DNA of 42,463 nucleotides from Jimgerdemannia flammicorona (taxonomy: Eukaryota). The notes beneath the pieces are model-generated. The model searched no databases, was not told where the DNA came from, and saw only the letters and a list, made by a program, of their open reading frames with translations. The DNA lies in the NCBI GenBank assembly GCA_003990765.1, contig RBNJ01000089.1, positions 1 through 42,463 on the forward strand, given 5' to 3'. Shown here in pieces: positions 22,656 to 38,385 of the stretch (positions are counted from its first letter, which is position 1; each line of letters opens with the position of its first letter). The translations under genes and the position numbers were made by a program.

Positions 22656-22716
22656 TCAGAGAAAGTGCATTCACATGGATGGGATAATCCTGTCCATGTG
22701 AATGCACTTTCCCCAA
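22656..22716. repeat. Palindromic element, copy 1
   Basis: Core 22661-22711 GAAAGTGCATTCACATGGATGGGAT-A-ATCCTGTCCATGTGAATGCACTTTC, centre at 22686. Confidence 0.95.
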
Positions 22717-22767
22717 CATCAAAATTGCATCTGCTACTGTGATCTAACAAATCTACACCTTACCACA

Positions 22768-24092
22768 ATGTCCACAAAATATCATTGCATATCAAAGAAC
22801 ACTCCAGTAGTAGTAGTACCCAATCTGAGCATCTTGGTAGTAGTACCTGTTTGTCACTGGAGAGAGCTGGCCATGGAAACTATTTAGCAGATTACCAGTT
22901 ATCTGACAGGTGATACAACAGAGGACTTCTTAAACCTGCTCTCCATATCATTGGTGTTGCAATAACTCTACAATATAGTTCGACCTCTGATATCTACCCA
23001 TCACATAAAATGTCTATTTGAGAGAAAGACTGATAACATCTATGTCCATCACCTAGCAATGCTATTGGTGGCCTCGTAGAAATATGCCCTTGCATACCAC
23101 AATGAGCTCACCATCCAATGAATACCAACAGATGCATCTGATATGATAGCAGCAGACTTGTTAATTATTTTGCACATTACAACACTTAAAGAGCTCTGCA
23201 TCTGCATCTATGGCTCTACAAATTTAATATTTCTTCACCAGCTTGTACCCCACATTCACTCAGTTAACAGTCTGTGGCTGCAAAATAAAACTGACATTAA
23301 CAAGGATACAGACGAGGGTCTGAAACATTTGATAGCATCTATTCAACCATATCTGACTACAGTTAAGATCAGTGGTATGCTTAATGATGTATACCAGCAC
23401 GCACTTGTAGATTACATCTCTATTGAATCCATGGAGCTGGAGGCCATCAACTTCTATATTGGATTTTATCAGTTTACATACTGGCCATAGTTGTGCAGGA
23501 TTAAAATTTTGAATTTCCACTTAACAAGCCAGATTTCCATATTACCCAAGAAATCTGACCAGTATTTACCTGTGGAAGAGTGAGCTGTTCATCATATACC
23601 CAATTATAACCAATATAGACTGGAGATTAGTCAAAACTCTTTTTCAAGTATTTATTATGAGATGTCCATCCCTCAAATAAGTGGAAGATAACCTATCAAC
23701 CCTATCAAGAGAAATCAGCCTAATTGATGATGAATACTCAGATATATTGATATATAAGATGTCGATACCTCGAGGAACTTAAGCTTCCACCAAAGTCAAG
23801 ACCCACAGGCAATACAGTGTTGGATGCAGGTTAGCCATGGAGGTATTTAAAAGTGTTAGAGGTGTGGTGTGCCTCAGTCATAGCAGAGTTTGTTAGTCAG
23901 GCACTGTATGGTAGCAGAGATCTCGAGAGTATTGTTATTCCCATGACACTGATAAGTGACCCAAAGATATTAGACACACTGGAAATGTGCAGTTTTGTAG
24001 AGCAGTCATGCAGTGAATGCAGCTCATTTATTCAGTTTACTATAGATAGCATACTGTGTAAAGAATTTGAGAATGATAACTTCCTACCCTAG
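22768..24092 (+). pseudogene. F-box-like / LRR-like protein, paralog A
   Basis: HWRELAMETI*QITSYL..FLNLLSISLV N-terminus; LRR-like LKELCI, LEELKLP, LKVLEV. Confidence 0.6.
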
Positions 24093-24120
24093 CTAAGATT
24101 TATATAACATATACTATGGT

Positions 24121-24790
24121 TCAAATATCCTGCAGTTGAGATAGTTTTAATTCTAATATAATATCATGTAGTACCAGAGATCCCTTATATAGGGAAACAA
24201 TCTTAGTATCATTTACCAAACTGATATGACATATAATGGCCAGCAAGATGAATCGCCTAAATCCTGTAATAAATACCCATACACCATTGATATTGTATTG
24301 TTCAACTTTGATATTAGCTATTCCAAGCAGTTGGCCAAAACTCTTTTGCACAATATTAGCAAATATTCTTGCAACATTGTATTGATCACCTATACAGTAG
24401 TAATCAAACAGCATGTTAAGGTTATTTTGGACAAACCAAGTCATCAATACTGTATCATCATCAGCAATTATCCACAAGTTATCCAGCATTTTTCTAATAG
24501 TAGTTTTGACTCTGTCGAGGTCTATGCTCAGATAGATTAAACAATGGCCACCATCCATACTTATACAATTGTATAAATAGCAAAAAAGTAACAATCCATC
24601 ATCTGCATAGTAGTGTGGGCCATAAATCTCTGAGAGAACAATAGATGCCCATACATATGTCAAACATATAGTATTTGTCGATATCAAGTATCCATAATAT
24701 ATTCATTGATTCCATAGCTAGCACCTCCATCACCTGCCATCCATTGTCCAGACTTGCTACAAATGACATATATTGCTCTGCCTTATTCAA
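24121..24790 (-). pseudogene. Hypothetical protein (frameshifted)
   Basis: Overlapping ORFs 24599-24790 and 24121-24687 starting directly at the stop of the BTB gene. Confidence 0.4.
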
Positions 24791-25717
24791 TCAACTGGCT
24801 GAGACAGGCAGCTCTTTGTACAGCCATAGAAGATCTGCCTCAAGAGATGTCAGATCCACCTCTTGTCGATTCAACATATCTATCATCTCTTGTTGTGTTT
24901 TTGGAAAGAGTTCCTCATCATCAATCTGAGTGATCTTAGACCCAATAATGTCTATGGCATTGACAGCTACCACAATAGACACCAGCACATCGACAGCTCC
25001 TGTAATAGTTTTGAGACAGCATGGGCTGATGTACATGAGATCTATGTGACCAACTAGTTTTAAGAAGTCGTTGTGTATGCAAGATATGTGAATTGCTCCA
25101 CGGTTGATATCATTGAGAACAGCATAGCGATTGACTGCTGATGGAGCCCCATTACAATGACACCATACCCAATTGATCATACACAGAAGCAGAGTATGCT
25201 GGGGTGTGATACTAAGGTTCTGTGTTGTAAGAACCATCTCCAGAATATCCATAGGCATATTGCTTAGACTTCTGACAGATAATTCATAGATACATAGTGA
25301 TTTAACAATGGCATTGTAGAACTTGCTGTTGAGTTCATCATGGGGTACTACCTTCTCCATGGTTTCAAGTAGCAATATTACATCATCTGGATCATTGGGA
25401 CTGGCTAAATGGCTAACCACTAGCTCAGAAAGTCTGGGTAATAGTAGAAAGTTTGCTGTACAGTATAGCCCTACTACGTCAGTTAGAAGATCTGGTATGA
25501 TTTCAGCAAACACAAAGATGAGAACATCGTGGAGTATATGTGACTTAATGGCATTCAACTTGACTGCATTTGATGTGGCCTCACACATGCCACCGTATAG
25601 CATTGCATGGAAAAACAGACATCTCCCTGCAAGGATGCTGCGACATGTTGTCACCTTGATGCCATCAGCACACACAATTGTCAGATCATGGTAGACAGCA
25701 TTGTTCAAGATATTCAC
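24791..25717 (-). CDS. BTB/POZ-domain protein (intronless, open 308-aa frame)
   Basis: YHDLTIVCADGIKVTTCRSILAGRCLFFHAMLYGGMCEATSNAVKL..VLIFVF..LYCTANFLLLPRL is a typical BTB signature. Confidence 0.85.
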   Translation of the reverse strand: MNILNNAVYHDLTIVCADGIKVTTCRSILAGRCLFFHAMLYGGMCEATSNAVKLNAIKSHILHDVLIFVFAEIIPDLLTDVVGLYCTANFLLLPRLSELVVSHLASPNDPDDVILLLETMEKVVPHDELNSKFYNAIVKSLCIYELSVRSLSNMPMDILEMVLTTQNLSITPQHTLLLCMINWVWCHCNGAPSAVNRYAVLNDINRGAIHISCIHNDFLKLVGHIDLMYISPCCLKTITGAVDVLVSIVVAVNAIDIIGSKITQIDDEELFPKTQQEMIDMLNRQEVDLTSLEADLLWLYKELPVSAS

Positions 25718-36401: not shown

Positions 36402-36860
36402 TCAGGCCTGACACATTTTGATTATGATAGTCAAGTTACTGAGATTGGTTTCAGCTATCCTTGTCTTGCTCTCCAGAAACCTCATATATGCAATTGCAAC
36501 CTCAAAATCTCTAATAACATTCCCAAACATGCATGCAACTGTCTTCCCCCACTCTATCTGTGCCAAGGACTGAGTGGTCACATCATATGTATTCCATTTG
36601 GACACCAGCTCCTGTCCCAACTTTACCACATCCACCTTCATTGTAAACCTCTCCACACATGACAGTATCACATCAATATGTTGAAAATTACACTGAGCAG
36701 CAACAAGGTTGACATTTATCCATCTCATGCAATGTTTGAGTTTCTTTATATATCTGAAGATAGCATCAATATCAAGGATTTGTTGGTGGTATAATTGGAT
36801 TTCCAGTATATAAAGGTACTTCTCGAACTCCAATGTGTCAAGTTCAAGTGTATTATGCAT
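36402..36860 (-). CDS. Hypothetical helical/coiled-coil protein, probably decayed
   Basis: 152-aa ORF with no recognisable motif. Confidence 0.3.
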   Translation of the reverse strand: MHNTLELDTLEFEKYLYILEIQLYHQQILDIDAIFRYIKKLKHCMRWINVNLVAAQCNFQHIDVILSCVERFTMKVDVVKLGQELVSKWNTYDVTTQSLAQIEWGKTVACMFGNVIRDFEVAIAYMRFLESKTRIAETNLSNLTIIIKMCQA

Positions 36861-37883
36861 ATTGAGTTGAAATATTGGAAATGCATGTATGTATATGTCT
36901 CATAGTTATATTATATGACTGTTGTAAATTACAAGTTGAGATGTCATACTATATTGAACCATCATTCCAATTATTGCAAACACAACTATCACTACCATTC
37001 CACCCACACATAGTACATTCCAGTAGCGGTGGCAATTCATCATCATCATCTCTGATTATTAAACAAAAATCATCCTTCCATTCATCTGCCACCTTTATGA
37101 GATTATTGAATGGTATTATGTTGTAGCATGCCTCTGTTATGATCAATTTTCGAAGCTGGTAGCACTGAATGAGCTGAATTAAAAATGAATTATCCAGGGA
37201 TGAATCTAAAGCATCTATATAGGAGAAATCATTAGGACAATGTTATATAAACTATATGTATAAAAATATTCAAGATATAAAACACAATAATAATAATATA
37301 CCAGTATATTGCATGCATTGAATACTTGGATTATTGGAAATAAATTCTAAGAATTTGTCAGAGGCTACAACCTGACTCAGTCGAATTTCAATAAGGTCTT
37401 TGAATGTGATTGTGATGCTCCTAAAGATTCTCTCAAATTGACCAGATATGATGTTGAAGATATGGAGATGCGCTAATCTTAGAAGATTTGAGATAATGTT
37501 TTACACATTTTGACAGATGTCTTCTCACAAAAGAGTGCTCAATTGAATGACAAGTTCAGTGATTCTGCCAGTGACATATATGAAGTGTACCAGATCTGTG
37601 TTAAGACATAGTGTTAATAGGGTCAGATCGGAAGCTTGGGTTAAATATAATTTGTCTGGGAAGGATGGTAACTTGAGGTATGCCATTTGTTACAAGGATG
37701 ATAATGAAGTGGTTTCATCCAGAGTCTTTATGTTTAGTTGTATAATATATAATTATAATGTCTATAATATGATTGTAAATCCAACAGGCTTTTTGTTATC
37801 TGATAAACTGGATCAACAGACTGTACAGTATATAATTTATTTTGATACATGATCACTGATGCACCTCAGCTGCACATGGAACC

Positions 37884-38267
37884 TTAAGATTCTGGATCCA
37901 GCTCTATGACAAGGATCCACTGAGGAGTGACTTCAAGTTTCTCCAGAGTGATGCTCTCATCATTGACATCTATTGGGATAAGTTTGTCGTCATCTTTCCT
38001 CTTCAGAATGAAATCTTTATCTTTCAGATTATGCTGCATCTTAAGTATGTGCAACAATTCGCCAATATCAGCCATCTTCTCTATCCTGATGGTGTGGGAT
38101 GTGCCATTCAACCATTGAACCATAAAGATGATAAATTCAGGTGATGTTTTCACTACACCATGATGTTTGTCATCCCTTAGTCTGCCAGACCCAACAACAT
38201 ATTTCATCTCCTCCTTGACCTTAGTCTTGGTCTCAGTCATCTTGTCTTTAGTCATATTTATCTCCAT
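37884..38267 (-). CDS. Small ubiquitin-like-fold protein, paralog 3 (open frame)
   Basis: FIIFMVQWLNGTSHTIRIEKMADIGELLHILKMQHNLKDKDFILKR..DESITLEKLEVTPQWILVIE follows a beta-grasp pattern; no C-terminal GG. Confidence 0.7.
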   Translation of the reverse strand: MEINMTKDKMTETKTKVKEEMKYVVGSGRLRDDKHHGVVKTSPEFIIFMVQWLNGTSHTIRIEKMADIGELLHILKMQHNLKDKDFILKRKDDDKLIPIDVNDESITLEKLEVTPQWILVIELDPES

Positions 38268-38324
38268 ATTGGTCGGTTTTAGGAGGCTTGAGGTTTGTAC
38301 TGATCACATGTCATGGTGTCAGTA

Positions 38325-38385
38325 TCAGGGAAAGTACATTCACGTGGATGGGATAATCCTGTCCACGTGAATACACTTTCCCCAA
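38325..38385. repeat. Palindromic element, copy 4 (retains both CACGTG)
   Basis: Core 38330-38380, centre at 38355; CACGTG at 38341-38346 and 38364-38369. Confidence 0.95.

Follow-up and report, generated by a model that had tools for sequence, protein, structure and literature searches.

A near-perfect palindrome recurring between back-to-back reading frames of Jimgerdemannia flammicorona, possibly the shared core of a bidirectional promoter

The attC sites of integrons are imperfect palindromes, similar in length to the element reported here, that stand between gene-sized units whose genes all face one way. The MITEs known as mimps are longer than our element, carry internal sequence and TA target-site duplications, have a known parent transposon and are scattered genome-wide. 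In Fusarium oxysporum, mimps are reported upstream of effector genes (PMC3599309); they resemble our case in that a short inverted-repeat element lies consistently upstream of clustered fast-evolving genes. Large chromosomal palindromes such as those of the primate X are reported to stay alike through arm-to-arm gene conversion (PMC8327919). In Mucor, which belongs to the same phylum as our fungus, bidirectional gene pairs likewise consist of divergent genes on one short intergenic region, which would drive both, and paralogous pairs recur there too; the paper describing them reports short enriched motifs only, and the string 'palindrom' occurs 0 times in its text.

The DNA studied here, hereafter the window, is the whole of a 42,463 nucleotide stretch of Jimgerdemannia flammicorona (contig RBNJ01000089.1), in which several adjacent back-to-back gene pairs have a near-perfect palindrome of ~55-90 bp halfway between their start codons. 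A first-pass annotation had reported four copies centred at 22686, 26789, 34084 and 38355 (spacings of 4103, 7295 and 4271 bp), and all were recovered at these positions: a degenerate 26-nt arm pattern with at most 3 mismatches matched 8 times, once in each of the two arms of the 4 copies, and 0 of 100 shuffles contained any match; the chance expectation is no copy at all. The single central base of the earlier description is present in each copy, but the arms measure 26 nt, not 25, which gives a core of 53 nt. A profile built from the four copies and run over the window with nhmmer hit those 4 sites only (E 2.7e-28 to 2.8e-23; next match E 0.39), and single-stranded folding gives the copies energies between -16 and -28 kcal/mol (z-scores between -3.6 and -8.4). 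Read as purine/pyrimidine, the palindrome was formerly ~89-100 bp long.

Copy 1 (22642..22730, core 22660-22712, + strand, 92.8 bits) has arms that match exactly at 30/44 positions and by transition at 12, and keeps the purine/pyrimidine palindrome at 19/23 positions for k=28-50. Copy 2 (26745..26833, core 26763-26815, + strand, 89.2 bits) is 91% identical to copy 1 across 76 nt, and its right-side conservation stops at ~26821. Copy 3 (34040..34128, core 34058-34110) scores 76.8 bits on the - strand versus 55.1 on the + strand and is thus inverted relative to copies 1, 2 and 4; the inverted-repeat pairs I1-I3 measure 66-67 nt and are 80-82% complementary. Copy 4 (38311..38399, core 38329-38381, + strand, 91.4 bits) keeps the purine/pyrimidine palindrome at 23/23 positions for k=28-50 (background P ~5e-5). 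We also found a decayed fifth copy of ambiguous orientation at 29062..29150, with one arm recognisable at ~29062-29094; the plain nhmmer profile does not pick it up, but a transition-tolerant alignment with copy 4 scores 55, against a null mean of 35.3 (sd 4.7, max 49, n=364).

All 42 of 42 pairwise differences among the copies in the core are transitions, in keeping with the proposal that undoing CpG decay restores a perfect palindrome; some of them, however, lie outside CpG (e.g. GTGCAT/GTACAT), and CpGs other than that of CACGTG are deduced from TG/CA mismatches and not directly present. The two symmetric CACGTG boxes are intact in both arms of copy 4 only and have decayed in the other three copies, a point that we count against a promoter. 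Stretch 1-38400 is strongly CpG-depleted throughout (observed/expected 0.05-0.18).

Each copy had been described as flanked by a minus-strand gene to the left and a plus-strand gene to the right, and outward-pointing ORFs do occupy 7/8 flanks of the four clear copies, with gene models that are ORF-based only. The exception is the right of copy 2, where the longest ORF within 900 nt has 68 aa; no ORF and no Pfam match corresponds to the Crinkler gene placed there, and Crinkler families, a label applied also to the ubiquitin-like (UBL) genes, are absent from the Pfam matches both of the window ORFs (E<=0.05) and of four UBL relatives (E<=0.01). Left of copy 1 are ORFs (22054..22743, - strand) that are ankyrin-like by eye only and interrupted by one stop; to its right is an F-box-like pseudogene (22768..23490, + strand) that begins with an ATG 82 nt from the centre and is broken by in-frame stops; its paralogue right of the fifth copy (29153..29990, + strand) changes frame between ORFs, the two aligning over 22843-23100 and 29222-29463 with a score of 146.5. 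Neither the ankyrin nor the F-box-like label has Pfam support at E<=0.05. Left of copy 2 is a UBL pseudogene (26290..26716, - strand) with three in-frame stops, 81% identical to 28414-28707, and left of the fifth copy a UBL ORF of 92 aa (28457..28732, - strand) without an in-frame start codon before the domain. Many of the flanking genes are pseudogenes, with in-frame stops in the UBL beside copy 2 and in each of the two F-box-like copies.

Copy 3 has on its left a hydrophobic ORF of 155 aa (33533..34000, - strand, ATG 84 nt from the centre) with no Pfam match, and on its right putative reading frames (34161..35887, + strand, ATG 77 nt from the centre), ORF-based and representing one or several genes, which end in a SAE2/CtIP C-terminal domain at 35636-35887 (PF08573, E 2.9e-6, 28.7 bits versus a cut-off of 19.8). 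Left of copy 4 is a small UBL gene (37884..38267, - strand), an intact ORF of 127 aa with its ATG 88 nt from the centre; the ORFs on the right (38431..39262, + strand, ATG 76 nt from the centre), namely one of 86 aa followed in a different frame by one of 212 aa at 38624-39262, have no Pfam match. The UBL label has tentative support from relatives in J. flammicorona: the UBL of copy 4 shares 33-43% identity with the other UBL copy in the window and with the UBL domains found in proteins of J. flammicorona, and a UBL profile finds 4 proteins at E<=1e-3, of which J. flammicorona contributes 3; UniRef gives two members of one cluster the name 'Ubiquitin-like domain-containing protein'. The window UBL itself has no Pfam match, nor any PDB sequence match below E 0.16.

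The premise of a conserved element among unrelated, differing genes is partly wrong, since the palindrome was co-duplicated with UBL and F-box-like neighbours: with the fifth copy counted, 5/10 flanks fall into two paralogous groups. The two families keep to their sides, UBL genes to the left of copies 2, 5 and 4 and F-box-like genes to the right of copies 1 and 5, so the palindrome spread with a tandemly duplicated head-to-head cassette. Copies 2 and 4 stay collinear outward from the centre of the palindrome for as far as the UBL domain extends (459 versus 476 nt), so the association of palindrome and UBL predates that duplication.

We put at about even odds (a probability of roughly 0.5) the interpretation that the palindrome forms the common core of a compact promoter acting in both directions, part of an ancestral head-to-head cassette that was tandemly duplicated. 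The ancestral cassette would have consisted of a small UBL gene running leftward, the palindrome, and an F-box-like gene running rightward, and its duplication would have produced the array of ~16 kb. On this view an arm would act on the gene next to it, supplying transcription-factor sites and probably the transcription start, with transcription predicted to begin within or next to the arms. Selection acting on both copies of one promoter half would keep the element symmetrical, and its conservation would be owed to function.

Among the three mechanisms proposed by the first-pass annotation, a bidirectional promoter module is the best fit, because of the start-codon spacing and the contrast in identity. 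In the alignment of copies 2 and 4, identity is 87% over the palindrome arm, where 1 of 45 positions shows a transversion, and 56% over the UBL coding part, where 77 of 376 do; Fisher tests give P 4.5e-5 for the difference in identity and 1e-3 for that in transversions. On 5/10 flanks, an ORF of 29 or more codons begins at an ATG 76-88 nt from the centre, a spacing that 7% of random positions satisfy (binomial P ~3e-4, for a distance window picked after seeing the data). The genes are head-to-head, on opposite strands with 5' ends <1 kb apart; the ATG-to-ATG gap is ~160-165 bp (~161-164 bp at copies 3 and 4), and the palindrome occupies over half of it, the 89-bp element filling most of it at copies 3 and 4. 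Besides this spacing, the co-duplication with neighbours and the conservation of the arm over UBL coding DNA, we count for the promoter the position of all copies between outward-pointing reading frames, the intact ORFs on both sides of copy 4, where both CACGTG boxes are intact, and the lack in the window of a target-site duplication and of a transposase or recombinase.

Several observations count against the promoter. The intact copy 2 adjoins the UBL with three stops while the decayed fifth copy adjoins an open UBL domain, the opposite of what a needed promoter would predict. Given the strong CpG depletion and the many pseudogene flanks, copies 1 and 2 may drive nothing today, though they are still ~90% like copy 4. 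Copy 3 is inverted, with flanks unrelated to the cassette.

Finally, gene conversion confined to the palindrome would yield the same contrast between arm and coding DNA. A recombinogenic palindrome without regulatory role, kept alike among copies by hairpin or cruciform breakage and short-tract gene conversion that draws on another copy or on the opposite arm, with exchange between copies shuffling or inverting the intervening segments, is in our view a doubtful alternative. It would account for the 87% identity of the arm next to 56-61% in the adjoining collinear DNA of copies 2 and 4, and for similarity that lasts beside pseudogenes. Also consistent with it are four derived transitions common to both arms of copy 3, which look like arm-to-arm homogenisation, the incongruent variants CACATGG (copies 1 and 2) and GTACAT (copies 2 and 4), and the one-sided flank homology at copies 1 and 2. 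Yet the fifth copy was left to decay, the regular start-codon distance goes unexplained, and one-sided homology at copies 1 and 4 is expected anyway from the edges of a tandem array. Moreover, copies 1, 2 and 4 have all kept one derived difference between their arms, an asymmetry 5-6 nt from the centre, which argues that arm-to-arm correction is not general.

The same asymmetry implies that whole units were copied, which would also suit a short foldback or MITE-like element that entered, or survived in, nucleosome-free divergent promoters, cassette duplication having carried an old insertion and copy 3 being independent. We regard this origin as unlikely. In its favour, the element is a short, nearly pure inverted repeat in several copies, so that the terminal inverted repeats typical of MITEs and foldback elements here make up its entire length; DNA similarity between copies is limited to 52-90 nt, the two paralogous flank groups aside; copy 3 is oppositely oriented among unrelated flanks; and the decay of the element is purely by transitions, nearly as in an LTR pair of the window (40 transitions versus 3 transversions). 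Against such an element, 5 copies lie inside 16 kb and 0 in the remaining 26 kb of the window, 4/5 copies are accounted for by co-duplication with paralogous neighbours at collinear distances, and the 76-88 nt centring on start codons, true also of copy 3, would be improbable for random insertion. The earlier observation of no target-site duplication holds as well: with boundaries set anywhere from 24 to 55 nt off the centre, the only direct repeats of 2-11 nt are those common to all copies, though decay of 10-20% could mask short duplications. An empty-site test on paralogues showed no empty site, scoring 32.5 versus a null of 28.5 +/- 4.

No transposase was found in the window either. Pfam scans of 98 + 103 ORFs revealed no tyrosine recombinase, protelomerase, HUH or transposase domain and no viral genes; the sole integrase in the window belongs to a Ty3/gypsy retrotransposon (12567-14034, 4 kb away). 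These results count against the remaining proposals, in which the element is either the dedicated target of a site-specific recombinase or of an enzyme that resolves hairpins (attC-like or protelomerase-like), or else a viral hr-like origin, and which we consider very improbable. What speaks for them is geometry only, imperfect palindromes bounding gene-sized segments of 2.3-5 kb. The genes inside each segment face both directions, unlike integron cassettes, and the copies lie inside the sequence instead of terminating it. The attC class is disfavoured, there being no linked recombinase gene among the ORFs scanned and no features of a strand-specific folded site: arm mismatches as G-T wobbles on the top versus bottom strand number 6:6, 5:8, 2:3 and 6:8, evenly divided between strands. 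The viral hr-like origin is also disfavoured, with no viral domains among those ORFs and no matches in viral contigs.

A more speculative combination, to which we give little credence, is a portable two-way promoter cassette kept uniform by copy-to-copy and arm-to-arm conversion, with inter-copy recombination swapping or inverting gene segments. This would let the fungus change which of its fast-evolving genes (UBL-, BTB- and F-box-like, with relationships to Jimgerdemannia caspase/VIT fusion proteins) a common switch expresses, a eukaryotic counterpart of cassette shuffling without a dedicated recombinase. If the element is a bidirectional promoter, it would be an unusually clean natural one whose halves mirror each other exactly. 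Several diverged copies stand next to one another, the decayed ones serving as internal controls, which would make it a convenient system for the origin (e.g. inverted duplication of a 5' end) and upkeep of symmetric promoters, in a fungal lineage that diverged early and whose promoter biology is almost unstudied. Should the element prove instead to move or to be driven by conversion, it would exemplify how a palindromic repeat of very small size shapes a lineage-specific gene cluster.

Compared with the known systems, the locus differs from attC arrays in that no integrase is present among the ORFs scanned apart from that of the retrotransposon, the genes diverge from each site, the host is a eukaryote with intron-containing genes and there is no strand-specific signal. 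Unlike mimps, the palindrome has neither internal sequence beyond one base nor a target-site duplication. Arm-to-arm homogenisation, possible in copy 3, would be a parallel to the primate X palindromes, but those span kb to Mb with genes inside, whereas ours is <100 bp and lies between genes. Unlike in the Mucor pairs, the gap here is largely taken up by one near-perfect palindrome (53-89 bp), which is present at five neighbouring pairs and conserved above coding DNA.

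Four palindromes, centred at 22686, 26789, 34084 and 38355 (copies 1 to 4), each consist of a 53-nt core with 26-nt arms around one central base, and all four sites read as the first-pass annotation of the sequence had stated. A degenerate arm pattern yielded exactly eight matches in the window, the two arms of each of the four copies, and none of 100 shuffles matched. The repeat search grouped the copies as one family of 81-nt members with 70-86% identity to the reference copy, and BLASTN of the window against itself limited the similarity between copies to 52-90 nt. A nhmmer profile of copies 1-4 gave no further copy in the window below E 0.39. 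A decayed fifth copy (copy 5, 29062-29150) retains a single recognisable arm at about 29062-29094, whose alignment score of 55 exceeds the null (35.3 ± 4.7, maximum 49, n=364). The element is directional, about 18 nt beyond the left arm being conserved in copies 1, 2 and 4. These copies score 89-93 bits forward versus 46-53 reverse with the nhmmer profile, and copy 3 is inverted (76.8 bits reverse-complemented versus 55.1 forward). With copy 3 reverse-complemented, every one of the four copies has A as its central base.

The ancestral palindrome was longer than today's core. At positions 28-50 from the centre, and counting transitions as matches, the two sides mirror each other at 23/23 sites in copy 4 and at 19/23 in copy 1, compared with a mean of 11.5 at random centres (P ~5e-5 and ~1.5e-3, respectively) and a maximum of 16/23 when one arm is shifted by 1-8 nt. 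Copies 2 and 3 are at background (13/23). This outer-arm mirroring in copies 4 and 1 gives an ancestral length of approximately 89-100 bp. Copies 1, 2 and 4 have in common an asymmetry between their arms at 5-6 nt from the centre, and copy 3 carries four identical derived transitions in both arms.

The palindrome is decaying via the same C-to-T process as the surrounding region. All 42 pairwise differences between copies in the 53-nt core are transitions, and an LTR pair in the same window differs by 40 transitions versus 3 transversions. These 659-bp LTRs (8758-9416 and 17980-18638, 93.5% identity) bound a degenerate minus-strand Ty3/gypsy chromovirus (8758-18638), with fragments of RT, RNase H, integrase and chromodomain; a dUTPase domain lies inside it (15596-16336). 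The CpG observed/expected ratio is 0.05-0.18 at 1-38400 and 0.74 from 38400 to the window end. Differences between duplicated sequences are nearly all transitions, and paralogues have stop codons made by transitions; this has the look of repeated DNA decaying through methylation or a RIP-like process. The earlier reconstruction, in which undoing CpG decay restores a perfect palindrome with CACGTG boxes, holds in part: CACGTG is seen in copy 4, but in that copy only, the other CpGs are inferred, and some variable sites are non-CpG.

The window has a eukaryotic look, and its open reading frames are short and interrupted. Only one protein is well conserved, a DUF4097 ORF (40235-41275, minus strand), whose best relatives are Jimgerdemannia flammicorona proteins (57-62% identity) and which lies within the CpG-richer last 4 kb (0.74); long A-rich and T-rich low-complexity runs follow at 41977-42344, near the right window end. 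GH31 fragments occur at 270-2477 (minus strand). At 20186-20812, 24-nt (8-codon) tandem repeats leave several frames open, and the proline-rich plus-strand frame has a Pfam Cornifin/SPRR match (E 7e-11), probably due to repeat composition. An Rfam tRNA match at 21892-21975 (plus strand, 43.9 bits), not called by ARAGORN, may contain an intron, given its length of 84 nt.

Among the genes beside the palindromes, the ankyrin, F-box and Crinkler labels of the first-pass annotation are without Pfam support in the window ORFs, while that of a small ubiquitin-like gene (UBL) appears fairly well supported by J. flammicorona relatives. Three UBL copies are present: one with three in-frame stops (26290-26716), one with an open domain and no in-frame start codon ahead of it (28457-28732), and an intact one of 127 aa (37884-38267). 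Searching 1.84 billion representatives with a two-sequence UBL profile gave four protein matches at E<=1e-3. Three come from J. flammicorona: one is a stand-alone protein of 117 aa with the UniRef name ubiquitin-like, one is of the UBL-VIT type, and the third is a caspase-BTB-UBL protein. J. flammicorona UBL genes include RUP49550.1, RUS26150.1 and RUO95616.1. A word-index protein search at near lengths returned no match for the UBL, and comparison with PDB sequences nothing below E 0.16. A BTB ORF (24794-25750, minus strand), whose closest relatives, like those of the UBL, are from J. flammicorona, shares 38% identity over 214 aa with the BTB/BACK-like part of the caspase-BTB-UBL protein, which means that parts of a modular UBL/BTB/caspase/VIT family are present in the cluster. 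Going by the protein matches of the DUF4097, UBL and BTB ORFs, the source would be a Mucoromycota fungus close to Endogonales. A separate MITE-like inverted repeat of 143 bp (25810-25952; 36-nt arms 86% complementary, 71-nt spacer) lies some 60 nt upstream of the BTB ORF and is not related by sequence to the palindromes. For the ORF to the right of copy 4, the protein atlas returned unnamed clusters only (0.90-0.91, with recognition below the guide value) and is uninformative.

We compared the ten 900-nt flanks all against all, each read outward from its copy. Four pairs stand out: the right flanks of copies 1 and 5 (185.5) and the left flanks of copies 2 and 5 (492), 2 and 4 (189) and 5 and 4 (172). 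Protein-level comparison confirms that they are paralogous, so that the flanking genes do not all differ as had been claimed. The remaining pairs score 30-52, and the flanks of copy 3 are both unique. Each family keeps to one side, the left for UBL and the right for the F-box-like sequence (pseudogenes at copies 1 and 5). Judged from these alignments, the pattern is that of a tandem array of one putative unit: palindrome, F-box-like gene, other genes, UBL gene. Copies 1 and 4, the outermost array palindromes, would have a foreign outer neighbour because they are the array edges, and copy 3, inverted, falls outside the pattern. Copies 2 and 4 are collinear from palindrome centre to UBL domain end (459 vs 476 nt), hence the palindrome's place ahead of the UBL gene predates that duplication. 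Between copies 5 and 3 lies a dual-specificity phosphatase (DSPc) fragment (30801-31058, plus strand, E 2e-10), and downstream of copy 3 a SAE2/CtIP C-terminal domain (35636-35887, plus strand, E 2.9e-6) with stops or introns in its upstream frames.

Within the alignment of copies 2 and 4, the arm (first 45 aligned positions) has 87% identity and 1/45 transversions, the next stretch to the start codon 61% and 7/33, and the UBL coding part 56% and 77/376 (arm versus coding, Fisher P 4.5e-5 for identity and 1e-3 for transversions). Since neutral sequence of the duplication's age should be no better kept than coding DNA, either the arm is under constraint or it underwent homogenisation or copying at a later stage. 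Maintenance of a recombination-prone palindrome by conversion would account for similarity beside dead genes and for the symmetric changes in copy 3, but leaves the regular ATG spacing unexplained, and we consider it decidedly unlikely.

That spacing, like all findings here, comes from ORF-based gene models and a single 42-kb window. For ATGs that open ORFs of 29 codons or more, the distance to the centre is 82 nt right of copy 1, 84 nt left and 77 nt right of copy 3, and 88 nt left and 76 nt right of copy 4. Random positions satisfy the same requirement in 7% of cases (P ~3e-4, for a distance window picked after seeing the data). The other five of the ten flanks have no such ATG: stops or frame changes interrupt the reading frames left of copies 1 and 2 and right of copy 5, no ORF of more than 68 aa occurs within 900 nt to the right of copy 2, and left of copy 5 the open UBL domain is the one without a start codon. 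Only ~161-164 bp separate the two start codons at each of copies 3 and 4, and the 89-bp element would therefore have to hold or abut both transcription starts.

Mobility as a MITE would explain the inversion and unrelated flanks of copy 3, as well as the copying of whole units. However, the window has no transposase and, as noted previously, no copy-specific target-site duplication was found at any boundary tried, and both the collinear paralogous flanks and the location midway between start codons would have to be secondary; we regard this origin as unlikely. In an empty-site test, the left-flank paralogue of copy 2 scored 32.5 against the right flank of copy 2, not above the null (28.5 ± 4), nor was a gap-permissive alignment outside its own null. 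A site-specific recombination site or viral hr-like origin, also proposed initially, appears very improbable, no supporting gene or match having been found. Two degenerate patterns had no match in metagenome contigs, and viral contigs gave none either. The one match in prokaryote genome contigs, in a Danxiaibacter flavus contig, is a single arm without partner that we take as chance. Selection on an RNA hairpin was rejected, as G-T wobbles from arm mismatches are equal on both strands and no Rfam family matches at the copies; the even wobble counts also speak against selection for a single-stranded hairpin.

The best-fitting reading, to which we assign a probability of about 0.5, is that the palindrome may be a compact bidirectional promoter module, on account of its position, co-duplication, excess conservation and regular spacing, which extends to copy 3 with its unrelated gene pair. 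Against a promoter, the region is CpG-depleted and rich in pseudogenes, the E-boxes are gone from three copies, and intact copy 2 adjoins a dead UBL gene whereas decayed copy 5 adjoins a more open one. A mirror-image promoter could have arisen from one 5' end duplicated in inverted orientation, and the same constraint on both halves would keep it symmetric. The open-access literature searched held no account of a palindrome of this kind, whether from Mucoromycota or from other fungi. Candidate motifs are a bHLH/bZIP box (CACGTG), a central TAATCC and, in the outer arms, a CRE-like TGAYGTCA.
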